Both the position numbers and the translations under genes were made by a program. From contig NZ_BOPZ01000012.1 in assembly GCF_018332455.1 (NCBI RefSeq), positions 31,443 through 95,442 on the forward strand: a stretch of DNA of 64,000 nucleotides, written 5' to 3'. Of this stretch, positions 837-63,579 are shown piece by piece. The notes under the pieces are model-generated. The model worked only from the letters and a program-made list of their open reading frames with translations. It had not been told where the DNA came from and did not search any database. This DNA comes from Clostridium polyendosporum. GTDB taxonomy: Bacteria; Bacillota; Clostridia; Clostridiales; Clostridiaceae. The first letter of the stretch is position 1. The number at the start of each line of letters is the position of its first letter.

Positions 837-2093
837 TTATCTTATAAATCTACCTTCACTACCATCAGTTTTAATTGTATAAAAAATATAGCTGTTTTTA
901 TCTGTTATATAAATTGGGAATAAAAAAATTCTATCTTTTACTAAAAATATTTGTCCAGGATAAAGGTTATCCTTTGAAACATTAGATATAGTTTTAGTGT
1001 TTAAATTATACTTCTTTAAGAAAAAGTCATTATTTTCATAATTTCTAACATCGTTTGCGATAAAGTAAATATGGTTTTTATCCAAATTAAATGGTATACA
1101 ATTTGTATTTGTAGAAGCGTATGAGAATAGAGTTTTTTTATTGCAAGTTTTTATGTTATATTGAATCAAATAGACTTTATTATTACTAGAAGTATCCCCC
1201 TTGGTGATATGTGAACGGCTATAATAAATATAATCATTATCTACAATAAAATTTAATATAGTATCATTTAACACCTTGGTCAATCTCGTACCGTCTAAAT
1301 TCATTGAATAAAGGAAAGAAGACCAGTTGTTCGTATTATTCTCAGTGTTTTTAAAATTCATCTGTGTGATAGTTTGAAGATATATTTTATCATTAATCAC
1401 TACTAAGTTAGATACATAAAGTATATCTTCTTTCAATTGAATTGGATCAAGTTTTTGACCATTAATGTGGATTCTAAAAACACATTTTTTTTCAGGTTTT
1501 AAGTAATAAATTATATCTTTATAAATATAATATGAGATACATGTATCGTCAATGTTTATGGTGTCTTCTCCAGTTAAAGAAGTTTTTGTGAGAGTTTCGT
1601 TTAAGGTTATATAGTAAAGAGTATTATTTATTATGCACATCATTTTTCCTGCAGGAATATTAAGTTTCTTCATCATAGTTGAACCATCGGACATTACTCT
1701 ATAAATTTGTTTTTCAAGAGCTATTATTGTAGAAAAATATATATACGGTTCATTATAAGTGATAAACCCTCCATTTCTCATGTTTCCTTGTAAAGTAGGT
1801 TCATAAAAAGTTTTTGATAAAACTTGGCTTGCTGTCATTTCACGAAGTGAAATCTGACTCAATCTCAGTAGGCTCGGTGCCTGCTTAGATTTATTGATAG
1901 GTACAGTTAATGAAGAAGGGCTAAGGGTAATATACTCCTTTAGTTGCTTTTTAGATATATTAGTTGTTTGTTCAATGGCTTGAACAGTGGGTATTACTTT
2001 TAAATACTTAAAATATATTACATAGTGTGAGAAAAAGGCTATAGCAGCTATTATATTATAAATAATGGGAAGTGGTATGTGTTTTTTTTTCAT
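837..2093 (-). CDS. Membrane-anchored hypothetical protein with DUF5050-like beta-propeller repeats; the N-terminal region carries an in-frame copy of the dispersed repeat
   Basis: A 418-aa ORF with an N-terminal hydrophobic anchor. Repeated YxxxxDG…KL motifs match the DUF5050 type. Residues ~70-88 (PSLLRLSQISLREMTASQ) are encoded by repeat copy R1. Confidence 0.6.
   Translation of the reverse strand: MKKKHIPLPIIYNIIAAIAFFSHYVIYFKYLKVIPTVQAIEQTTNISKKQLKEYITLSPSSLTVPINKSKQAPSLLRLSQISLREMTASQVLSKTFYEPTLQGNMRNGGFITYNEPYIYFSTIIALEKQIYRVMSDGSTMMKKLNIPAGKMMCIINNTLYYITLNETLTKTSLTGEDTINIDDTCISYYIYKDIIYYLKPEKKCVFRIHINGQKLDPIQLKEDILYVSNLVVINDKIYLQTITQMNFKNTENNTNNWSSFLYSMNLDGTRLTKVLNDTILNFIVDNDYIYYSRSHITKGDTSSNNKVYLIQYNIKTCNKKTLFSYASTNTNCIPFNLDKNHIYFIANDVRNYENNDFFLKKYNLNTKTISNVSKDNLYPGQIFLVKDRIFLFPIYITDKNSYIFYTIKTDGSEGRFIR
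1833..1888. repeat. Dispersed palindromic repeat copy R1 (modules A+B) lying inside a CDS
   Basis: The sequence gtcatttcacgaagtgaaatctgactcaa + tcagtaggctcggtgcctgcttag matches the intergenic repeat family: an A module tttcacNNNgtgaaa palindrome and a B module ggcWtcgagcc hairpin. Confidence 0.7.
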
Positions 2094-2255
2094 CTAAATC
2101 ACCTTTATTAGTATTTCCCATAGTGGTATTTTCTTAGTATTTTTTTTGATTTAATTTTAGTATAGATAGATAATGATTAAAAATAAGTTAATAGAAATAA
2201 AAAGACTATTAAGATAAAGATAACAGAAGATCAGAGCATATGGTTATAAAAATAA

Positions 2256-2325
2256 AACTGAGCAGGTATCGAACTTGCTCAGTTTTAGCTAGATTTCACT
2301 TTGTGAAGTCGCAATAAACTAAAAG
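2256..2325. repeat. Dispersed repeat copy R2 (modules B+A)
   Basis: The sequence ctgagcaggtatcgaacttgctcag hairpin + agatttcactttgtgaagtcgcaa. Confidence 0.7.
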
Positions 2326-2564: not shown

Positions 2565-2604
2565 TAAAAACTCTCCTTTATTTTTGTGAATTAAGTATGC
2601 TATC

Positions 2605-2712
2605 ACAGATACACAACTTTATAATTCAATTGATAATTCATGAAAAAGCGTTGCATGTCGAGGCTATTTTCATGAATTGTTTAAGGATTAAAGCTGTATA
2701 TCTTTATAAGTT
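2605..2712. repeat. Dispersed repeat copy R3 (module C: nested inverted repeats)
   Basis: An outer arm gatacacaactt… and an inner perfect inverted repeat aattcatgaaaa/ttttcatgaatt flank agcgttgcatgtcgaggcta. The element is homologous to 3975-4090. Confidence 0.7.
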
Positions 2713-3926: not shown

Positions 3927-3947
3927 GAGTTACGTAGGTAACTTTTT
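3927..3947 (+). terminator. Intrinsic terminator after spmB (agttacgtaggtaact + TTTTT)
   Basis: A perfect 7-bp palindromic stem followed by a T run. Confidence 0.7.
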
Positions 3948-3949
3948 AC

Positions 3950-4118
3950 TTGCTACCATTTCATAAGATGAAATCTAACTCAAACTATATATACACAACT
4001 TCATAACTGAATTTGTAATTCATGAAAAAGCATTGGATGTCGAGGCTATTTTCATGAATTTTTTTAGGGGTGAAGTTGTGTATCTTTAGTAGGCTCGATG
4101 TCTACTTAACTGAGTTAT
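3950..4118. repeat. Dispersed repeat copy R4 (modules A + C + B, composite)
   Basis: It reads atttcataagatgaaatctaactcaa (A), then atacacaacttca…aattcatgaaaaagcattggatgtcgaggctattttcatgaatt…tgaagttgtgtatc (a complete module C with outer and inner inverted repeats), then taggctcgatgtcta (B). Confidence 0.75.
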
Positions 4119-4292
4119 TGCCATCTAGAAAGTAAAATATGGCTAAAAGTGAATAAGTTTTAGGTTTATTTATTTTTATTGCTATATGATTAAATAATAT
4201 AGATACGATTTGTTAATGTAATTATTTAATAAATATGTAATATTTAATGAGTAAAGGTATGCTACTATATTTATAGATAGGGGGGGAAGTGT

Positions 4293-6687: not shown

Positions 6688-6723
6688 AGATATTCATGGA
6701 TATAGTATTAATAATTAATAAAA

Positions 6724-6751
6724 AAGGCAATTTTAAAAGATTGCCTTTTTT
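6724..6751. terminator. Bidirectional intrinsic terminator (aaggcaa…ttgcctt + TTTTT)
   Basis: A stem-loop flanked by A and T runs lies between the convergent ABC permease and MATE genes. Confidence 0.8.
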
Positions 6752-6757
6752 ATTATT

Positions 6758-6830
6758 GTTATTGCACAAAGTGAAATCTGGCTAAGGCTGAGAGGGCTCG
6801 ATGCCTACTTAACTTGAGTTTTAATCTTTA
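6758..6830. repeat. Dispersed repeat copy R5 (A+B)
   Basis: The sequence ttgcacaaagtgaaatctggctaaggctgagagggctcgatgcctacttaacttgag. Confidence 0.75.
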
Positions 6831-10530: not shown

Positions 10531-10583
10531 AAAGTTAATGATAAAAGTTTTATACTAAAGATACATCACTTTAAACCGTAAAC

Positions 10584-10676
10584 AATTCATGTTAAATAAA
10601 ATTTAATAGGCATCGAGCCTGTTAAATTTGAGCCAGATTTCACTTCGTGAAATGGCAGCAAATAGCCTCGGCATTA
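10584..10676. repeat. Dispersed repeat copy R6 (fragment of C + B + A in inverted orientation)
   Basis: The sequence aattcatgttaaataaaatttaat aggcatcgagcct gttaaatttgagccagatttcacttcgtgaaatggcagcaaatagcctcggca. It is near-identical in order to the copy at 33711-33800. Confidence 0.75.
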
Positions 10677-10849
10677 ATACTTTTTCTAAGGATATATAAG
10701 TTCAATCATTAATGAATCTTAGAGAAAAGCCTGGTAATTCCATAATTTCCATAAAGTTGTTAATTAAATTATGAACTTGTATATCTGAATTATAAGTTCA
10801 GTTATGAAGTTATTTATCTATATTAGACATTAGTTTTAGGAGGATGGTT

Positions 10850-13465: not shown

Positions 13466-13494
13466 TTTATAACATAAACTAATATTATATTTGG
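13466..13494 (+). promoter_or_regulatory. Sigma-A-type promoter driving the metG T-box leader (TTGACA-17-TAATAT)
   Basis: A consensus -35 with a 17-nt spacer and a -10-like hexamer lies just upstream of the T-box leader. Confidence 0.5.
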
Positions 13495-13499
13495 TAAAT

Positions 13500-13818
13500 G
13501 CATTGAAAAGAATAGTAGTAAGGATAAGTGTCTAAAGAGAACTGGATTAGGTGAAAGCCAGTGACAGGTACCTTTATGAAGATGGCCTTGGAGCAGATTT
13601 CCTGAATTTTTTAGGGAAGTACGGGAGCAACCGTTATATTGCAAAGTGATAAAAGCTTAGTGAATAAGTTAAATTAGTTCTTAAAGAATTAGTTAATTAT
13701 TAGTTTGCTAGTGGAGTTACTTAGAGAGATGTTTATCGTGAGATAAGCATAAAGTAGAGTGGTACAGCGTATTTTACGCCTCTACATAGACAATAATGTC
13801 TATGTAGAGGCGTTTTTA
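13500..13818 (+). promoter_or_regulatory. T-box riboswitch leader (Met specifier) with terminator/antiterminator for metG
   Basis: It has an AGAGA element, a specifier-like AUGA at 13575-13578, and a T-box core aaaGUAGAGUGGUACAGCG (consensus AGGGUGGNACCGCG). The GUAGAG is complementary to the 5' arm CUCUAC of the terminator, which gives the antiterminator. The terminator stem gcctctacatagac/gtctatgtagaggc (13777-13812) is followed by UUUUU. Confidence 0.75.
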
Positions 13819-13820
13819 TT

Positions 13821-13855
13821 TGTTGCCATTTCACAAAGTGAAATCTGGCTCAAAT
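13821..13855. repeat. Dispersed repeat copy R7 (module A only), within the metG 5'UTR
   Basis: The sequence tgttgccatttcacaaagtgaaatctggctcaa lies between the T-box terminator and the metG RBS. Confidence 0.7.
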
Positions 13856-13901
13856 TTATATTAATATAGTTAAATGTAGTTACAAAAAGGAGGCAATAAG
13901 A

Positions 13902-18644: not shown

Positions 18645-18689
18645 GAATAACCGAGAATAGTTTTGATTAGTTATATTTACTATAATTTC

Positions 18690-18745
18690 AATTTCATAAA
18701 GTAAAATCTAGATAAAACTGAGCAGACTCGATGTCTGGTCAGCTT
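18690..18745. repeat. Dispersed repeat copy R8 (A+B)
   Basis: The sequence atttcataaagtaaaatctagataaaactgagcagactcgatgtctggtcag. Confidence 0.7.
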
Positions 18746-18952
18746 TATTTTAGGGTTATTGTAAAATATCTTAAATGTATTAAGAATGCTGTGCTTAAAA
18801 TCATAAAGAATAGTGGTATATATGTATGTGAAATGTGTAATTTTATGTTAATAACGGACGAATTAACGGAATTATCTGAATATTAAATTTGACAGTTTGG
18901 AATTATTATGTAATAATTTATATATTCAAGGATGTCAGAGGTGACTATAAAG

Positions 18953-22661: not shown

Positions 22662-22680
22662 AATAATTGATTACATTAGA

Positions 22681-22712
22681 GGGAATTCAAAAAATTTGAG
22701 TTCCCTTTATTT
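22681..22712 (+). terminator. Intrinsic terminator after rsmA
   Basis: The stem gggaattcaaa/tttgagttccc followed by TTTATTT. Confidence 0.65.
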
Positions 22713-22776
22713 GTTGCCATTTCATAAAGTGAAATCTAGCTAAAACTGAGCAGACGTGATGTCTGGTCAGTTTTAC
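22700..22776. repeat. Dispersed repeat copy R9 (A+B)
   Basis: The sequence ttgttgccatttcataaagtgaaatctagctaaaactgagcagacgtgatgtctggtcag. Confidence 0.75.
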
Positions 22777-22936
22777 TTTTTAAAAACTTTTATGAATTAT
22801 ATTTTTCTATAAATTTAACTGTTATTAGTGAATTTTTCATTAGTATTAATTAAAAGGTACTAAAAATGAATTTGTAATATAACATTAAAACTATCATATA
22901 ATATAAAGAATAAATGTATGTGGAGGGACTGTTAAG

Positions 22937-24283
22937 TTGTCACACGGAAAATTATATAGGAGCTTCATAATATTACAAGAGGATGAGCGAGGATATTCAG
23001 TTTCAGGAGATAAACCTCTATCAGGATATGCTAAGATTGAGGCGAAGAATGACAAATGTAAAATATCTTTCTATGCACAAAATCTTAGAAAAGATGGGGA
23101 TAAGTGCTGTAGGGTTTTAATATGCTCAAGGAAAGATAAAAAGCAGCTTATTAAATTAGGACCGGTGAATATTAGTGAACAAGGTAAGGCAGAAGCAACT
23201 AGTGAGTTTACTGTAGATAACATAGGCGGAACAGGCATTCATTATGAAAAGATATCAGGTGCAGCTTTATGTAAAGAGAAAGCTGGTAAGATCATTTTTT
23301 TAATGGTGGGATTTATGAATGGAGAAATGCCTTCTGATGATTGGAAGAACTATAATATGATAACAGTAAAAACGAGTTCAGAAGAAGAATTTAAAGTAAT
23401 TGAAGAAAAGATTCAGGAAAAGATTGAAGTTAAAAAAGAAGAAATAAAAGTTGAAAAAGAGGATATTAAAGAAAAATGTCCAGAAGAAAAGATCGAATTT
23501 GAAATTAAAGAAGATATGAAAGAATATATGAAAGAAGATATGAAAGAGGATTATTCAATGGAAGAATATATGCAGGAAGAATATATGCAGGAAGAACGAC
23601 ATCGCAATAATGACAATAATCAAGATTATAATGAACATAATTATGATTATAAGCATGAGGAGATAGTTAAGAGTGAAATAGAAGAAGAATTAAAAGATAA
23701 AAAAGATTATAAAAATCATTATGAAGAAGAGGCGAAGAATATAAAAGCATTAGAAGAAGAAAGTAAATTTGATAATTACGAAAGACATATAGAAGATACA
23801 AAGAGAGAAGATACAAAGAGAGAAGATACAAAGAGAGAAGAAACAGATTGGGAAGATAATTTTACGATAAGGGGTAGTGTAGGAGAGTTTTTCCTAAGTG
23901 TAGTAGGTGATTTTGAAGAGGCAAGAGGTCATAAAGACATAAAATACTGTAAGTGGTATAAGGTTCCAGTTGAGAGCTTAGATGTAATGTGTAACATATC
24001 AAATTATAATAAATATACAGTGGTTTATTATCCAATGATAAATTACTATCCATACATTAAGAAACATGGACATTTTATGATAGGTTTTAAATGTGATGCA
24101 GCTGGAAAGATGAAGTATTTAGTCTATGCAATTGCTGGTACAAAGGATAAATCAAATCAACCTTATGGTGGAAAATCTGGCTTTGTAACTTGGATGCCAT
24201 ATCCAGATAGGGGTACGAATATAGGTTATTGGCTTATGTTCTATGATTTTAAGAATTCTATGGTCGTTGTACCAATGAAGTAG
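22937..24283 (+). CDS. Hypothetical protein with a central acidic/low-complexity tandem-repeat region (TTG start)
   Basis: A 448-aa ORF preceded by ggaggga. It has an N-terminal ~150-aa domain, a middle region rich in E/K/D/Y with repeats (MKEDMKE, EEYMQEEYMQEE, EDTKREDTKREDTKRE), and a C-terminal ~150-aa aromatic-rich domain. No family was recognised. Confidence 0.55.
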   Translation: MSHGKLYRSFIILQEDERGYSVSGDKPLSGYAKIEAKNDKCKISFYAQNLRKDGDKCCRVLICSRKDKKQLIKLGPVNISEQGKAEATSEFTVDNIGGTGIHYEKISGAALCKEKAGKIIFLMVGFMNGEMPSDDWKNYNMITVKTSSEEEFKVIEEKIQEKIEVKKEEIKVEKEDIKEKCPEEKIEFEIKEDMKEYMKEDMKEDYSMEEYMQEEYMQEERHRNNDNNQDYNEHNYDYKHEEIVKSEIEEELKDKKDYKNHYEEEAKNIKALEEESKFDNYERHIEDTKREDTKREDTKREETDWEDNFTIRGSVGEFFLSVVGDFEEARGHKDIKYCKWYKVPVESLDVMCNISNYNKYTVVYYPMINYYPYIKKHGHFMIGFKCDAAGKMKYLVYAIAGTKDKSNQPYGGKSGFVTWMPYPDRGTNIGYWLMFYDFKNSMVVVPMK

Positions 24284-24492: not shown

Positions 24493-25077
24493 GTGAATCA
24501 ATTTATTAATAAGAAGCAGCTCGGGGTAACTTTGATACTTATAGGTTTAATGATGGTACTTTTTTTAGCCCAAAAAGGTTTCAATGATAGATTAAAACTT
24601 GTCATGCTTATGGATAGTAATATAACAAACTTAAAAGAGTATAGTATAGGCACGGAAGGATATTCTTATAGCTTGCCAGCAGAATGGACAACTAATCAAA
24701 AGAGTTATCCAGGTAGTTATATTGTTTATCATAACTCTTTTAGAAGCGAGAGCATGGGAATTATAGGATATGTTGAAGTTATGAATTCAAAGGATGGGTT
24801 AGAACATATAACGATTAGTGATGGTAATAAATTACCACAAAATAAGGTGAAAGAATATAAATCATTAAAAACTAAAATAAACGATAAGGAAGGATATAGG
24901 ATATCTTACAAATTAAACTTAGATGAAGGTAAGCTTGTATACGATAACGTTTATTACATTAAAGTAGATGAGGAAAAGTACTTCAAGTTATTATTTAGCG
25001 TTGGAGAGGAGAAGTATAAAGAAAACCTTTTAGCAGTATTTGATGCCATAGTTGAGACTTGTAAGGTCAATAAATAA
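24493..25077 (+). CDS. Hypothetical membrane-anchored protein
   Basis: It has an N-terminal TM (LGVTLILIGLMMVLFLA). A GTG at 24493 lies 6 nt after ggaggg. Confidence 0.5.
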   Translation: MNQFINKKQLGVTLILIGLMMVLFLAQKGFNDRLKLVMLMDSNITNLKEYSIGTEGYSYSLPAEWTTNQKSYPGSYIVYHNSFRSESMGIIGYVEVMNSKDGLEHITISDGNKLPQNKVKEYKSLKTKINDKEGYRISYKLNLDEGKLVYDNVYYIKVDEEKYFKLLFSVGEEKYKENLLAVFDAIVETCKVNK

Positions 25078-25080
25078 AGT

Positions 25081-25205
25081 TGAGCAGGCATCGAGCCTAT
25101 TTAACTTGAGTCAGATTTCACTTCGTGAAATGATGGCAAATAAAGCTGAGAGGACATCGAGTCTAATCAGTTTTAACCAGGTTTCACTTTGTAAAATTGC
25201 AGGAA
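25081..25205. repeat. Dispersed repeat copy R10 (two tandem B+A units)
   Basis: The pattern is gagcaggcatcgagcct…cagatttcacttcgtgaaatgatggcaaat, then gagaggacatcgagtct…caggtttcactttgtaaaattgcagg. Confidence 0.75.
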
Positions 25206-25298
25206 ATAAGATTTGATTTAATATTCTAATAGTATTATAATTTATCTTAGAGTTACGGGAGAAGCATGTGCTTCTCCTATTTTTAAGGTGGTGAAAGT

Positions 25299-32995: not shown

Positions 32996-33170
32996 AAGTT
33001 TCAATTCTTAAATTAAAAAGGAGTAGTGTGAACTGCTCCTTCTTAGTTTCTATATCATTTATATTGAAACATTTAAAGTCAGGGTATACTGATTATAAAA
33101 AATAAGATAAGAAAGTATTTTTCTTTTTATGGTAAAATACAAATATACAATAAGAGAAAAAGGTGATTAC

Positions 33171-33686
33171 ATGAATAACGATAAGCTAATAAGATTATCA
33201 GGAATATTGCACGAAAGCCTTGTCAATGGACCAGGTATAAGAAGGGTCTTCTTTTCACAGGGATGTAAGCATAATTGCCCTCAGTGCTTTAATCCTGAAA
33301 CCCACAGTTTTGAGGGGGGAGAGTTAAGAAGCATGGATGTACTTATAGAAGATGTTAAGAAAAATTCAATGATAAGTGGAATAACCTTTAGTGGAGGAGA
33401 CCCCCTAGAGCAAGCAGAAGAATTTGCATATATGGCAAAAAAATTTAAAGACATAGGACTTAATATATGGTGTTATACAGGATATACCTTTGAATACATA
33501 ATAAATCACTTAAATGAGAAAAGAGAATGGAAGAACCTAATAGAAAATATTGATATTTTGGTTGATGGTCGCTTTGAAATGGATAAAAAGGATGAAACAT
33601 TAAAGTTTAGAGGATCTTCTAATCAACGAATTATAGATGTTAAAAAGAGTTTAGAAGTAGGAAAAGTAGTAACACTCTCTTATTAA
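33171..33686 (+). CDS. nrdG: Anaerobic ribonucleotide reductase activating protein (radical SAM)
   Basis: It has the Cys motif CKHNCPQC and the …GITFSGGDP… block. The start is at the ATG at 33171, preceded by aaaggtga. Confidence 0.9.
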   Translation: MNNDKLIRLSGILHESLVNGPGIRRVFFSQGCKHNCPQCFNPETHSFEGGELRSMDVLIEDVKKNSMISGITFSGGDPLEQAEEFAYMAKKFKDIGLNIWCYTGYTFEYIINHLNEKREWKNLIENIDILVDGRFEMDKKDETLKFRGSSNQRIIDVKKSLEVGKVVTLSY

Positions 33687-33689
33687 AGA

Positions 33690-33850
33690 TAAACAACTTC
33701 AATCTTTAAATAATTCCTGTTAAATAAAATTTAATAGGCATCGATCCTATTAAATTTGAACCAGATTTCACCTTGTGAAATGGCAGCATAATAGCCTCGA
33801 CATGCAATGCTTTTTCAGGAATTATAAGTTTAGTTATGAAGTTGTGTATC
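33690..33850. repeat. Dispersed repeat copy R11: a nested composite in which module C is interrupted by modules B+A
   Basis: The outer arms aaacaacttcaat…atgaagttgtgtatc and the inner arms aattcctg…caggaatt enclose aggcatcgatcct (B) and ccagatttcaccttgtgaaatggcagc (A). Confidence 0.75.
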
Positions 33851-33870
33851 TATAATTTAATATGTAAAAA

Positions 33871-33901
33871 AAGCCTGCCACAAAAGAGGCAGGCTTTTTT
33901 T
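33871..33901. terminator. Strong bidirectional intrinsic terminator (aaaaaagcctgcc…ggcaggcttttttt)
   Basis: A 9-bp GC-rich stem flanked by A7 and T7. It lies between nrdG (+) and the alpha/beta hydrolase gene (-). Confidence 0.85.
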
Positions 33902-33929
33902 ACTCCATTTAATTGATACTAATTGATAC

Positions 33930-34018
33930 TAATTCACAAAGTGAGATTAGACTAAAATCCAACTGTTTGGTAGCTGTTGAATTTTATTTCATAAAAAACC
34001 TAGCTAAAACTTAGAGGA
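33930..34018. repeat. Dispersed repeat copy R12 (two degenerate A modules), preceded by the short tandem repeat attgatacta ×2
   Basis: The pattern ttcacaaagtgagattagactaaaa…atttcataaaaaacctagctaaaacttagagg. Confidence 0.6.
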
Positions 34019-36647: not shown

Positions 36648-36715
36648 TAAAATTAGGACTGATATCTATATCTTCAGTTAAATTTTACTTTTTTAAATGG
36701 TAGCAAATAAAAGCA

Positions 36716-36745
36716 AAAGACAGCTTATACAAACAAGCTGTCTTT
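36716..36745. terminator. Bidirectional intrinsic terminator (aagacagctt…aagctgtctt)
   Basis: A 10-bp perfect stem with T and A runs on both sides, between convergent genes. Confidence 0.8.
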
Positions 36746-36776
36746 TATTGATTCTTAAGAAATAGGAGAATTTATA

Positions 36777-38754: not shown

Positions 38755-39689
38755 TGATCAGGAGAGGAATAGTAATGGAGGTTAAAGGGAAAAAGGTTCT
38801 TCTTATGACTTCGGCAGGAGAATTTACTATGGTTAAGGTAGGAAAAGAATTGCCAGTCAGGGGAAGAGAATATGAAGGAAAGGTTCTGGTGAAAAGTACT
38901 ATAAACAAGAGAATAATTGCAGCAGTAGCCTCTTTTGTACTTATTTTTACTTTGGGAGCAAAAGATTATTATACCCCAGTTAAGGCGTTAGAGATTTATG
39001 CAAGTTCTAATATAAAACTGGAACTTAATAGATGGGATAGAGTTATAGAAGCATCTCCTCTTAATGATAATGGTAGGAAGGTTCTTTCTAAAATAGCCTT
39101 AAATAACAGAGATATTGAGAAAGCTGTTAATATGATTTTAGAACAAGTTTCAAAGGAGAATATTTTAGGAGGTCAGCATCAGATATCTATTAATTCAATA
39201 AATGGAAAGTTAAATATTGACAACCTTAAAAAAATTATAGAAGAAAAAGGATTAAAGATCATTGATATCAACTCTTATAATGAAAATAATAAAATAAAAA
39301 GTCAACAGAGTGAAGTAATTAATGAGGAAAAGAGTAATAGTAAAAATAATGAAGAAAAAAATTTAAGTGAAAATAAATCGAATAAATCTATAGATAATAA
39401 AGGTAATAATGGACGGGAAGTTAATAATAGTAACAAGCATAGTATCTCACAAGACCAAGACACTAATAAGGATGTGAATTATAGTAAAAATAGCCAAGAT
39501 AATAAAATCAAGAGTTCTAGTTCATCTAGTAATGAAAAAGAAATAAAAGGTAATTCAAAACAACAATTAAAAGATACGGGAATAGAAAAGACTGATGGTA
39601 ATTATAAACATAATTTACAGGATACTCAAGGGAGCAATGAGCAATCAAATAGTTCTGAAAAAGAAAATAATACAATAAAGAAAAAGTAA
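38754..39689 (+). CDS. rsgI: Anti-sigma-I factor RsgI-like: RsgI N-terminal domain, single TM, then an Asn/Ser/Lys-rich low-complexity extracytoplasmic tail
   Basis: The N-terminus MIRRGIVMEVKGKKVLLMTSAGEFTMVKV matches the RsgI_N pattern (M.RGII.E…V.LLT.DGEF). A TM spans about aa 53-70. The C-terminal ~150 aa have no recognisable globular sensor domain. Confidence 0.65.
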   Translation: MIRRGIVMEVKGKKVLLMTSAGEFTMVKVGKELPVRGREYEGKVLVKSTINKRIIAAVASFVLIFTLGAKDYYTPVKALEIYASSNIKLELNRWDRVIEASPLNDNGRKVLSKIALNNRDIEKAVNMILEQVSKENILGGQHQISINSINGKLNIDNLKKIIEEKGLKIIDINSYNENNKIKSQQSEVINEEKSNSKNNEEKNLSENKSNKSIDNKGNNGREVNNSNKHSISQDQDTNKDVNYSKNSQDNKIKSSSSSSNEKEIKGNSKQQLKDTGIEKTDGNYKHNLQDTQGSNEQSNSSEKENNTIKKK

Positions 39690-39711
39690 AAATGAATAGG
39701 AATAGACTTAC

Positions 39712-39779
39712 TCGCTTTTAGTTAGATCTTACTTTGTAAAATAGCAGTAAATAAGGTGATGGGGACAGTACGTCCCCAG
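39712..39779. repeat. Dispersed repeat copy R13 (degenerate A) plus the hairpin ggggacagtacgtcccc
   Basis: The pattern ttagatcttactttgtaaaatagcag, then a GC hairpin. The hairpin may act as the asnS (-) terminator. Confidence 0.5.
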
Positions 39780-51920: not shown

Positions 51921-51954
51921 AAACTCATCTAGTCTTTGCTAGATGAGTTTTTTT
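51921..51954. terminator. Bidirectional terminator (aaactcatctag…ctagatgagttt + T7)
   Basis: A 12-bp perfect stem. Confidence 0.85.
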
Positions 51955-51955
51955 A

Positions 51956-51996
51956 CTTGCCATCATTTCACAAAGTGAAGTCTGGCTAAAACTTAA
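51956..51996. repeat. Dispersed repeat copy R14 (module A)
   Basis: The sequence ttgccatcatttcacaaagtgaagtctggctaaaac. Confidence 0.7.
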
Positions 51997-52021
51997 TAGA
52001 TTTAATAACTATTAAATTTTA

Positions 52022-54172
52022 TTACTTAGTATTCTTAATATCTGATGGCTTTACATAGCTTAATATTTCTTGTTTGATTTTTTCTGCTTCTTCTGAAAGC
52101 TGTGCATTACCGGAATCTTGGGATGTTAATTTTTCGCTTAAGAGCATCATTACTAAGTTTTCAAAGACATTATGAATGTTATTTTCTCCATCCTTGGATC
52201 CAGTGGTGATAAGGGTTTTCGGAACAATATCAATCTTGGAGGTTTTTATAGCGTCAGCAAAGTTATTCATTATTTCTTGAACTATCTTGAATTGAGCTCC
52301 ACCAAAGGCATTAACCTGCTCTTTTGCAGCAATGGCCTTTGATATACCAACTCTAGCCTCTCTATCAGCATCGGCTTCCCCCACAGTTTTAATCTTAAAG
52401 GATTCTGCTTCACCAGTCTGCTTGAGTCTGAAAGCCTCAGCTTCAGCTTGCTGCTTTGTTTGATATGCAGAAGCTTCTGCTTGTTGTTTTAATCTAAAAG
52501 CTTCAGCTTCTGCTTGTTGTTTAACTTTGTATGCTTCAGCCTCTGATAATCTTTGTATTTTCTCAGCATCTTGTCTAGATTTCATAAGTTCAGCTTTACC
52601 TTGGTTTTCTTGAATTCTAATATTAATGTCTGATTCAGTAAGTGAAGTTTGCTGTTTTGCAATAGCCTGAGCTTCTTTTAATTCTTTTTCCTTTTCGGCA
52701 GCGGTCTGTTGAGTGGCATAGGTTTCAAGTTGTTCTTTAGCAATTTGTCTTGAACGCAGCTGAGTTAATATTTGTTCAATGTTACTATCATTCTTTGAAC
52801 TTGTTGGTGTACCAATTAATACTTCTTCAAGTTCTAGATTATAATGTGAGAATTTAGCTTTCATTTCTACTGAAGATTGGTTTTGGATTTCATTTCTTTG
52901 TTGAATTAATTCTATGAGCGTCTTTGTTTGACCAATGTTTTTAAAGTATGCCGATACCATTGGGTCTAGGGTTTGATCAACTAGCATTTTAATATCACCG
53001 AACCTTTGAATAACCATAGGAGCTTTCTTATAATCGATATGAAATACTACTGATAATGGAAGTGACGGTTCAAAGGCATCCTTAGATATTAAGCTAACTT
53101 CCTTAAGATTTTCATCATATTTATGATTTCCATTTTGATTACTTATCCACTTCAATATTACATTAGTTGTTGGAACTTGGATTATGCTACCTGCATAGGT
53201 GTTAAAAGCGTATTTACCTGGCATAAGTGCTTCCCCCCAGACACCTCGATAACCCTTTTGGACAAGCTCGCCGTGTTTATAATCTTCACCAGAAGAGTCT
53301 TCCCCTTTAGCGCCCATATAGGATACAACTACACCAACATATCCAACAGGTATTATAGTTTTGGAGATATATTCGACTGTAGCAAATAATCTATTTATAA
53401 AGTAAGAACCATCAGCGAGTACTTGATACTGTCTACCTCTATATCCGCCTGCTTTTAAAAATCTTTCGGGATCTTGAAAATTGTTGTGGTAATTTTCGTC
53501 ACTTGGATCATCTCCAACAGTAGGGCATATGATATTGTCTTTTCCTAGTGATGGACCGTCATGTACTGTTACTATACCAACTAAATCACTTTCACCTTGA
53601 ATTACAATAGGATCAAACCCATTCCTTATGGCTATCTTTTGGGCCATTTCTAAAATTGTTTTCTGTTCACTGCTGTTACCCATTGGTAAGTAATACGTTT
53701 TATTTTCAGTAATTATTATAAATTGTGCAAGGTTAAAGGAGTAGGTACCTTCACGGATGATGCCTCTTTGAGGACCTCTTTGTCCACCATTTTGAATAAA
53801 AGCTCTAACATCTTGGAAGTTATTACACTGAGGAACTATTTTGCCTAAGGTTTGAGTTGGTTCTAAGGGTTTGCCATCTCTTGAAAATACATAAGCAATT
53901 TTTCCCTGAGGTATTGTAACTAAAGGGACAGTGTGTATTTTATAGAGTAATGGAGTTTTAAAGTGAATACCACCTCTTAGTACATCGGGTTGATAACCGG
54001 CTTCACCATTTAATGCAATGATTTGTTCCTTTAGTGAGCCTTTTGATGACCACCATTTTTCTACAATAGCAACCTTATCATTTGGAATGATTTTGAATCC
54101 TGATAGCCAAACTAAGAAAAAGAAACCAAGGATTCCTATTCCGGTATTGATTAATAATGTTGTTTCGACCAT
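52022..54172 (-). CDS. Flotillin-like SPFH/band-7 domain membrane protein (YqiK-like) with C-terminal tandem Ala/Glu/Gln repeats
   Basis: An N-terminal TM, then an SPFH-like region. The C-terminal region has about four ~18-aa repeats (QQAEAEAFRLKQQAEASAYQTKQQAEAEAFRLKQTGEAESFKIK). Confidence 0.7.
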   Translation of the reverse strand: MVETTLLINTGIGILGFFFLVWLSGFKIIPNDKVAIVEKWWSSKGSLKEQIIALNGEAGYQPDVLRGGIHFKTPLLYKIHTVPLVTIPQGKIAYVFSRDGKPLEPTQTLGKIVPQCNNFQDVRAFIQNGGQRGPQRGIIREGTYSFNLAQFIIITENKTYYLPMGNSSEQKTILEMAQKIAIRNGFDPIVIQGESDLVGIVTVHDGPSLGKDNIICPTVGDDPSDENYHNNFQDPERFLKAGGYRGRQYQVLADGSYFINRLFATVEYISKTIIPVGYVGVVVSYMGAKGEDSSGEDYKHGELVQKGYRGVWGEALMPGKYAFNTYAGSIIQVPTTNVILKWISNQNGNHKYDENLKEVSLISKDAFEPSLPLSVVFHIDYKKAPMVIQRFGDIKMLVDQTLDPMVSAYFKNIGQTKTLIELIQQRNEIQNQSSVEMKAKFSHYNLELEEVLIGTPTSSKNDSNIEQILTQLRSRQIAKEQLETYATQQTAAEKEKELKEAQAIAKQQTSLTESDINIRIQENQGKAELMKSRQDAEKIQRLSEAEAYKVKQQAEAEAFRLKQQAEASAYQTKQQAEAEAFRLKQTGEAESFKIKTVGEADADREARVGISKAIAAKEQVNAFGGAQFKIVQEIMNNFADAIKTSKIDIVPKTLITTGSKDGENNIHNVFENLVMMLLSEKLTSQDSGNAQLSEEAEKIKQEILSYVKPSDIKNTK

Positions 54173-60116: not shown

Positions 60117-60129
60117 GTCATAAATAAAG

Positions 60130-60258
60130 TTGGGCAGGTATCCAGCCTATTAAAGATACACAACTTTAATCAGTAAACAATTCATAAAAATAAGAATTTA
60201 GGCATCAGCTCTATTAACTTTGAACCAGATTTTACTTCATGAAATGATAGCAAATAAA
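60130..60258. repeat. Dispersed repeat copy R15 (B + C-fragment + B + A)
   Basis: The pattern ttgggcaggtatccagcct…agatacacaacttt…aattcataaaaa…taggcatcagctct…ccagattttacttcatgaaatgatagcaaat. Confidence 0.7.
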
Positions 60259-60261
60259 AAA

Positions 60262-60300
60262 CCATGTGGTTTTATAAACCTCATGGTTTTTTGGGTTTTT
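60262..60300 (-). terminator. Probable terminator after murC (two overlapping hairpins aaaccatgaggttt / aaaccacatggtttttt)
   Basis: Read on the minus strand. The second stem is followed by a T6 run. Confidence 0.55.
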
Positions 60301-63390: not shown

Positions 63391-63579
63391 AAGTATATAT
63401 CAGTTATTAATAGCCTCAATATATGATATTTTTTAATGAATTATACATTCAGTTGTGAAGTTAAACATCTATATATTTCTTAAAATAAAAAAAATTTCGA
63501 AAAGTTTAAATAAAAAAAAGGATTTTTCTAAGTTAATATAGAAATATAAAATCATTAAAGCAACTGGAGGTGGAGTGAA

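Follow-up and report, generated by a model that had tools for sequence, protein, structure and literature searches.

Two small repeat families nested in one another at fixed positions in a 64-kb stretch of Clostridium polyendosporum

The intergenic DNA of bacteria is shaped by small dispersed repeats, which change the ends of transcripts and give rise to rearrangements; to our knowledge, the mobilizing mechanism is still unknown for most small-repeat families outside REP/RAYT. RUP (IS630-Spn1) and Correia elements are TA-duplicating MITEs (miniature inverted-repeat transposable elements) of about 100 nt, with terminal inverted repeats, a strong single-stranded hairpin, and insertions that are intergenic or overlap stop codons. 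Features of the RUP type are also described in PMC3049150. REP sequences are imperfect palindromes whose foot has a conserved tetranucleotide, GTAG, on its 5′ side (PMC3333891) and are targets for other mobile elements (PMC3333891, PMC1525189). The bcr repeats carry a TTTAT motif at the element ends (PMC6542083, PMC6199540), and group IIC introns sit after terminator hairpins (PMC1702495). Here we describe two repeat families, BA and C, in 64,000 nt of Clostridium polyendosporum DNA (contig NZ_BOPZ01000012.1, positions 31,443 to 95,442; hereafter the window, to which the census is limited). The element at the center of the analysis is a copy of C interrupted by BA, located between the stop codon of nrdG and its terminator.

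We read BA and C, with moderate confidence, as two unrelated-looking small non-coding repeat families that are mobile, BA inserting at an A/T tract beside a hairpin and C inserting at TA. The window offers a compact case in which two families are nested in each other at fixed positions and one of them seemingly reads an A/T tract plus a hairpin as its target.

A sequence-only reading of the nrdG locus had described a module C interrupted by the hairpin modules B and A. This is a correct description, because uninterrupted C copies read CATG-AA-AATAGCC straight over the site of BA. The copies at 2604-2706(-) and 3986-4088(-) read ...AATTCATG-AA-AATAGCCTCGACATGC..., and the solo copies carry CATGAAAATAGCC unbroken. 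At nrdG, 70 nt (33720-33789) lie exactly between CCTG and AATAGCC of C. The structural parts named by that reading were all recovered. The outer arms of C (33682-33701 and 33837-33856) are 20 nt long and 90% complementary, as are those of a second copy (3984-4003 and 4071-4090), and the inner arms (33710-33724 and 33811-33825) are 15 nt long and 87% complementary. Within C there is a B hairpin with a perfect 12-bp stem (33727-33738 and 33746-33757) and the loop CATCGAT, followed by the A hairpin CCAGATTTCACCTTGTGAAATGGCAGC at 33761-33787. Folded as single-stranded DNA, 178 nt of this region form one nested structure of -31.4 kcal/mol (mean of shuffles -12.1, z = -7.1; 0 of 200 shuffles as good), with the BA hairpins folding independently within the apical loop of C.

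The composite overlaps the end of nrdG, an open reading frame at 33129-33686 with Fer4_12/Radical_SAM domains. Its stop codon TAA (33684-33686) consists of the TA flank and the first A of C, and the C-terminus of NrdG has the same length as in relatives. Removing C together with one TA restores TAT-TAA, with the terminator 12 nt further on. The interval 33684-33854 is located between the stop codon and a canonical bidirectional terminator (33866-33901). Since the composite is in the 3′ untranslated region of nrdG, upstream of the terminator, the two are probably transcribed together, with at most a putative influence on the mRNA.

BA is a unit of 66-72 nt that comprises the B hairpin, a linker and the A hairpin, with about 17 full or partial copies in the window by profile search (nhmmer). 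Its consensus is AAATAAAA-nTGAnTAGGCATCGAGCCTAnTCAGTTTTAGCCAGATTTCACTTTGTGAAATGGCAGC-AAATAAA. There are no terminal inverted repeats; a hairpin is found near each end and the two hairpins are dissimilar. The B stem is variable and covaries, and its loop CATCGAG is conserved. Six of the 12 stem pairs show compensatory double changes among 12 aligned copies (e.g., TTTAATAGG/CCTATTAAA versus CTGAGCAGG/CTTGCTCAG), 90.7% of stem cells are paired compared to 29-45% when the partners are slid, and the covariation score exceeds that of all 500 shuffles. The A hairpin (ATTTCAC-N4-GTGAAAT) is kept at the sequence level, and its 20-mer has 15 matches in the window with up to three mismatches (0.17 expected).

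Separate A and B modules were considered as the basic units and rejected. B is found on its own only where a BA has been split by C, and two copies with only A look like eroded BA units, so we treat BA as the basic unit. The copies show no orientation bias in this small sample (nine plus, eight minus). They occur in both orientations relative to the upstream gene and are mostly found just downstream of genes. At least nine full-length copies have no trace of C arms nearby (nhmmer). The motif AAATAAA (complement of TTTATTT) is present at both ends of most copies. These flanks do not co-vary except in the copy at 51953-52023 and are probably not classical target duplications, an explanation that was rejected; they resemble rather a common core of the kind suggested for the TTTAT-associated bcr repeats (PMC6542083, PMC6199540). 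BA was also compared with a group II intron remnant, a CRISPR repeat, an attC site and a Rex/CRP-type operator. These candidates were dropped because the sequence has no defining feature of any of them.

C is a palindromic, MITE-type element of about 100 nt. It has terminal inverted repeats of 16-20 nt, inner arms, TA flanks and an apical loop that carries AGCCTCGA. About seven full or partial copies were found in the window (nhmmer), and the single-stranded DNA fold has z = -4.1. The end sequence is (A/T)AGATACACAACTT. TA is present on both sides in five of six C ends, a pattern equally readable as an extension of the inverted repeat. Together with the nrdG site, the ends agree with a RUP- or Correia-type element that duplicates TA. 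AGSCTCGA was counted six times in the window, compared to 0.62 expected, and every occurrence is within a B hairpin or a C center. In the C apex, AGCCTCGA is preceded by AAAATA, and by its letters the apex appears to resemble an A-tract plus a B hairpin. We also noted a promoter-like pair in the C outer arm, pointing inward (TACACA, a 16-nt spacer, and TATAAT or GATAAT; 33821-33848(-) and 2610-2637(+)). It may mean nothing, because such matches are no more common in the window than in shuffles.

The boundaries between the two families are consistent. BA adjoins C at the same C position in each of the three cases in the window (33686, 10558 and 60153), and C interrupts B at the same B position in both cases, after GCCTAY. 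The arrangement is therefore not a random mosaic, the outcome that would have spoken against the sequence-only reading; the junctions are constant in both nesting directions. The junction TG/TTAAATAAAATTTAATAGGCATCGA ... GGCAGC/A(A)ATAGCC of 33686-33852 (slashes mark the boundaries) is also present at 10591/10592. A second cassette had been placed near 10584-10676, and it does recur there (BA 10592-10660, 92% identical). It is not flanked only by an inner-arm half, as had been thought. This sister composite has a full C left arm, a C center and a C right arm, the last displaced by a C-like copy (10687-10786). That C-like copy has another interior and is located in the right inner arm, making the locus triple-nested, and its junctions are not clean TA duplications.

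The third C-left plus BA junction (60151-60257) was absent from the earlier reading, and a host terminator (60256-60292) directly follows its BA (60187-60257). Upstream (60121-60152), TAAAGATACAC directly adjoins a B half, GTTGGGCAGGTATCCAGCCTAT, and the boundary has the same place in the 3′ stem of B as in the split BA at 3945-4111(-). The latter, in which C is inside BA, reads ...GTAGACATCGAGCCTAC / TAAAGATACAC...(C)...GTGTATATA / TAGTTTGAGTTAGATTTCATCTTATGAAATGG, and a degenerate BA (4114-4157) is in tandem upstream of it.

Over the core, the BA unit in the composite at 33686 shares 92% identity with its counterpart at 10558, compared to 60-80% for typical BA pairs. The two units were recovered as a pair in 961 of 1000 bootstraps, both have an extra TT at the junction, and the right-arm segments are also 92% identical. 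On these similarities the two composites are, in all probability, copies of one ancestral composite. This would mean that one nesting event was copied as a unit, rather than that a preferred target was hit repeatedly, and that the composite itself was propagated, presumably via the terminal repeats of C. The copy at 60153 is more distant (73%) and could stem either from an independent insertion or from an earlier branch of this lineage.

The two explanations first proposed for the nesting fared differently. That the modules insert into one another, with a preferred nested target, agrees with the fixed junctions, and insertion is favored; the idea of a preferred target needs revision, as it involves one copied event and what looks like a special case of a wider rule on hairpins. 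Decay of a larger master element is less supported than insertion because at least nine BA copies lack C arms and intact C copies lack BA.

For all BA copies (n = 17) we examined the 60 nt that follow on the A side. The AAATAAA tract on this side usually runs straight into a hairpin. Such hairpins include the metG T-box terminator (13776-13813), terminators at 6716-6755, 22677-22709, 36715-36746, 39760-39778 and 60256-60292, and one ending near 51950. In other cases the hairpin is the B of the next BA (25071-25209; 4114-4157 / 4089-4111) or, within C, the apical hairpin. A hairpin of -10 kcal/mol or lower starting within 12 nt of the end was found on the A side of 8 of the 17 copies and on the B side of none (Wilcoxon one-sided p = 0.0075). 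Only 6.75% of 400 random intergenic positions have such a hairpin (binomial p = 6e-6). We infer that BA is placed at an A/T tract beside a hairpin, with a new A-tract and hairpin at its other end. One placement rule would explain the association with terminators, the tandem arrays and the nesting in C. The C::BA junction has the same form as the BA-BA tandem junction, and the preferred nested target seems to be one instance of this more general pattern of A-tract plus hairpin.

In the mechanism we propose, BA would be inserted at an A/T tract beside a hairpin by an enzyme acting in trans. Because BA brings its own A-tract and B hairpin at the other end, the target would be recreated and head-to-tail arrays would result. 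The apex of C looks like an A-tract followed by a B-like hairpin, so C would also be a target for BA, giving the nested C::BA. Once formed, a composite could be copied as a unit via the terminal repeats of C, as the sisters at 33686 and 10558 suggest. C would insert at TA, including the TA in the 3′ stem of B. More tentatively, BA may represent a novel type of mobile element, very small (66-72 nt) and lacking inverted repeats, which would home in a fixed orientation to an A/T tract beside any stable hairpin and regenerate its own target. Its driver could belong to a class of enzymes that has so far not been associated with elements of this sort in Firmicutes, e.g., a structure-reading HUH or an IS110-type recombinase. 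If true, the tandem arrays and the reciprocal nesting of BA and C follow from one rule.

Several points weigh against this account. Every count (17 BA copies, 7 C copies) is limited to these 64 kb. The TA flanks of C are indistinguishable from an extension of its inverted repeat, and the AAATAAA ends of BA lack co-variation in all copies except one. No transposase or recombinase domain was found in 50 open reading frames scanned from the window, so mobility is read from the structure of the copies alone. Further steps of deletion or recombination are required to account for the copy at 60121-60257 and for the right half of C at 63409. Selection could also add to the clustering near terminators, because insertions beside terminators are harmless.

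Searches outside the window indicate a narrow distribution. No BA or C with nhmmer E < 2 was found in 94 kb of syntenic DNA around nrdG from five relatives. The spacer between nrdG and the hydrolase gene is 42-302 nt in these relatives, with no BA or C copy, compared to 334 nt here. Four of the five spacers have only a terminator hairpin, and that of C. fungisolvens also holds an unrelated repeat. These spacers show the ancestral layout of a stop codon plus a terminator, at about 72% NrdG identity and without nucleotide-level junctions. The A-hairpin 20-mer has five singleton matches in 185,579 species genomes, in unrelated taxa and none with BA context. A degenerate A 20-mer has 27 singleton matches in a metagenome set, none with BA context, and we attribute these to chance because all lack the B loop and flanks. 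The composite has no match among plasmids and phages (blastn). With Rfam 15, the sole match in the window at gathering score is the T-box at 13494-13786, with none on BA or C; at E up to 10, no match above 13 bits falls on BA or C, and the stronger ones all center on the host terminator. As far as these searches reach, BA and C are restricted to C. polyendosporum and are best read as a lineage-specific expansion.

The repeat in the C. fungisolvens spacer (about 10560-10800 of its stretch) is a direct repeat of its own, TGTAAATGAAAGTATAAAGnTTTAnGnCGATTAAACCTAnATATTT. One copy immediately follows the terminator T-tract; the second is about 170 nt upstream of the terminator. Other Clostridium species may thus have their own terminator-associated repeats.

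One alternative is that the units belong to a modular master element as in BOX, in the order C-left, (BA)n, B-like apex and C-right, whose inner number varies by slippage or unequal recombination between AAATA repeats. Solo C, C-left plus BA, C-right and BA would then be products of deletion or recombination and not independent insertions. BOX has exactly that architecture (PMC3049150), the two arms of C are complementary to each other, as boxA is to boxC, and BA forms its own fold in the apical loop. The apex of C is B-like, so the composite interior reads as 1.5 tandem BA units, BA also occurs in tandem, and partial forms exist at 60151-60257 (C-left plus BA, no right arm) and 63409 (center plus right arm). 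We nevertheless consider a master element unlikely, as BA copies without a C remnant exceed the C-associated ones by about 3 to 1 and sit against unrelated host hairpins. The C inside BA at 3986-4088 would require nesting even from a single linear master, and the ends differ, with inverted repeats plus TA for C and direct AAATAAA for BA. Another alternative concerns only the enzyme and is compatible with nesting by insertion. BA may be moved by a single-strand-specific HUH/Y1 enzyme (RAYT/TnpA-REP or IS200/IS605 TnpA), in the manner of REP/BIME or PATE. The lack of terminal inverted repeats, the imperfect hairpins, the conserved loop on B, the conserved YYAG just 5′ of the A stem, and the occurrence in head-to-tail arrays and beside hairpins agree with this, and both REP/BIME arrays and the need of the enzyme for a hairpin and a 5′ tetranucleotide are documented (PMC3333891). 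However, in place of a conserved GTAG, BA has YYAG on the 5′ side of the A stem and an A-tract on that of the B stem, its two hairpins are unlike each other, and its units are head to tail with no inverted pairs (REP/iREP) in the window. There is no strand bias (nine plus, eight minus) despite mostly positive GC skew, and no Y1 domain was found in the 50 open reading frames scanned. The window lends no positive support to such an enzyme, the kind named in the sequence-only reading, and we give it a low probability.

It is very improbable, in our view, that the units are functional cis-acting RNA or DNA signals under selection (back-up terminators, 3′ untranslated region stabilizers or a protein binding site) whose nesting is coincidental. 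The covarying B stem with its conserved loop and the location of most copies just downstream of genes could be taken as signs of function, and the B hairpin plus tail passes a terminator-like scan at 1867-1885, 18723-18737 and 22751-22765. Yet BA and C match no Rfam family even at E up to 10, the copies are in both orientations relative to the upstream gene, and one is in frame inside a coding sequence. They are absent from the orthologous spacers of the five relatives, and the A-hairpin 20-mers found none in the 185,579 species genomes and the metagenome set. The real terminators beside the copies suggest instead the pattern of a recent selfish expansion. Insertion of BA beside hairpins and of C at TA thus remains our preferred reading. 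The features on which it is based are collected in Table 1.

Table 1. Positions in the window of the nrdG composite, of other BA and C copies, and of the adjoining host terminator
Feature	Position	Strand	Remarks
Composite C::BA	33686..33852	+	between nrdG stop codon and nrdG terminator
TA, left flank of C	33684..33685	+	candidate target duplication; matched by TA 33853-33854
C outer left arm	33686..33701	+	terminal inverted repeat AAGATAAACAACTTCA
C inner left arm	33710..33719	+	ATAATTCCTG
BA unit inside C	33720..33789	+	70 nt; nhmmer E = 8e-19
B hairpin	33727..33757	+	12-bp stem, loop CATCGAT; stem covariation over 12 copies
A hairpin	33761..33787	+	ATTTCAC-CTTG-GTGAAAT, foot CCAG/GG, then GCAGC
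C center / apex	33790..33815	+	AATAGCCTCGACATGCAATGCTTTTT; B-like motif AGCCTCGA after A-tract
C inner right arm	33816..33825	+	CAGGAATTAT
C outer right arm	33837..33852	+	TGAAGTTGTGTATCTA
Host bidirectional intrinsic terminator	33866..33901	+	common to nrdG and convergent hydrolase gene; outside the repeat
Degenerate BA	33922..33989	-	far side of nrdG terminator; E = 0.0018
Sister composite, including flanking TAs	10556..10822	+	C left 10556-10591, BA 10592-10660, C center 10661-10686, C right 10787-10822
Degenerate C-like copy, about 100 nt	10687..10786		nested in sister composite
B half, C left arm and BA	60121..60257	+	B half 60121-60150, C left arm 60151-60186, BA 60187-60257; no C right arm
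C center and right arm only	63409..63473	+	starts exactly at AATAGCC junction
Reverse nesting, BA split by intact C	3945..4111	-	B half 4089-4111, C 3986-4088, A half 3945-3985
Solo C	2604..2706	-	empty-site reference for BA junction; nhmmer E = 5.6e-31
Two BA units head to tail	25071..25209	+	period 66 (TRF, 1.9 copies); one common AAATAAAG junction
BA in coding sequence	1825..1896	-	no C nearby; in frame within coding sequence 837-2093(-)
Solo BA	2250..2321	+	
Solo BA	6749..6820	-	A-side end abuts terminator 6716-6755
A-half BA	13816..13858	-	directly after T-tract of metG T-box terminator 13776-13813
Solo BA	18686..18750	-	
Solo BA	22706..22778	-	A-side end abuts terminator 22677-22709
A-half BA	36672..36711	+	abuts terminator 36715-36746
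Solo BA	39684..39754	+	5 nt from terminator 39760-39778
Solo BA	51953..52023	-	abuts terminator hairpin ending near 51950

Some copies have features of their own. The BA in the coding sequence (1825-1896(-)) is 72 nt long, equal to 24 codons, and is translated as INKSKQAPSLLRLSQISLREMTAS inside a 418-aa protein (CPJCM30710_16790), between an N-terminal membrane segment and a DUF5050 domain. The BA consensus is open in three of its six frames. This copy resembles the in-frame insertions of Rickettsia RPE or of BOX. A search for homologues of the 418-aa protein for an empty-site comparison returned only the self match. In the diverged BA on the far side of the nrdG terminator (33922-33989(-)), 10 nt are duplicated in tandem (TAATTGATAC x2) and the B loop differs, which suggests older subfamilies. 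A T-box leader (RF00230, 106 bits) precedes metG, and an A-half BA is located in the 5′ untranslated region between this riboswitch and the start codon (13494-13858). The C left half with BA (60121-60257) and the C right half (63409-63473) are 3.2 kb apart and flank murC and a second gene. Both break exactly at CATG/AATAGCC, which recombination or rearrangement between composites could explain.

The surrounding DNA is ordinary chromosome. The window encodes metG behind a T-box, tatD, rnmV, ksgA, lgt, nrdD/G, pepA, asnS, a NiFe hydrogenase and murC. The NrdG open reading frame is 100% identical to a Clostridium polyendosporum protein; the next best matches, from C. manihotivorum, C. fungisolvens and others, reach about 72% identity. 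Most of the window has positive GC skew, which suggests a single replichore. There is also a 15-nt tandem repeat, GATACAAAGAGAGAA, with about four copies (23780-23839) within a DUF7922 gene (22937-24283); it is coding and unrelated to BA or C.

By a rough estimate from copy counts and lengths, BA and C make up about 15% of the intergenic DNA of the window. The practical value is modest and is in better annotation of C. polyendosporum, in which one BA copy is translated inside an annotated protein. The analysis provides a concrete, testable rule for repeats that pile up at terminators and inside one another. The repeats are also a candidate system in which to look for the enzyme responsible for bcr1-like, TTTAT-associated repeats, and the hairpin-adjacent placement of BA is the one feature that is possibly worth follow-up.

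Among known systems, BOX of S. pneumoniae and S. suis (boxA-boxBn-boxC) has the closest architecture. It is a composite modular repeat in which the terminal modules pair and the inner module, variable in number, folds by itself, and it clusters with RUP and SPRITE in Streptococcus. Like the repeats described here, BOX is mostly found downstream of genes. C occurs with zero or one BA, and tandem BA is found elsewhere in the window. Unlike the inner module of BOX, BA is mostly free-standing with its own target rule (at least nine full-length copies lack C arms), and C is also found inside BA. The host is a Clostridium, and the likeness drawn here is one of architecture. RUP and Correia elements resemble C only, in length (about 100 nt), terminal inverted repeats, TA flanks and stop codon overlap, with the TA duplication here being a candidate.

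REP/BIME elements with RAYT (Enterobacteria, Pseudomonas) are likewise mosaics of short imperfect palindromes and linkers that are amplified in tandem, extragenic and often near terminators. The repeats here differ in that they have AT-rich stems, no GTAG foot and no head-to-head REP/iREP pairs, and there is no RAYT gene in the 64 kb. PATE elements are derived from IS200/IS605 and have no inverted repeats, subterminal hairpins and no target duplication. BA has no inverted repeats and a hairpin near each end, but its two hairpins are dissimilar and AAATAAA is repeated at both ends. For group IIC introns, the reverse complement of BA is in the matching position, an analogy of target choice only; the target is also reminiscent of insertion sequences directed at REPs (PMC1525189). 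Unlike group IIC introns, BA is about 70 nt long and has no ribozyme domains or reverse transcriptase.

The bcr1-bcr3 repeats of the Bacillus cereus group are small structured repeats of one Firmicute lineage, and BA is likewise bounded by AAATAAA (TTTATTT). They are 100-400 bp long, compared to 66-72 nt for BA from Clostridium, and BA is an analogue by description rather than a member. We found no report of hairpin-adjacent placement for bcr in the literature examined. Overall, BA and C are an addition, restricted to one species as far as the searches reach, to the well-known class of small structured intergenic repeats of the BOX/REP/bcr1 kind.

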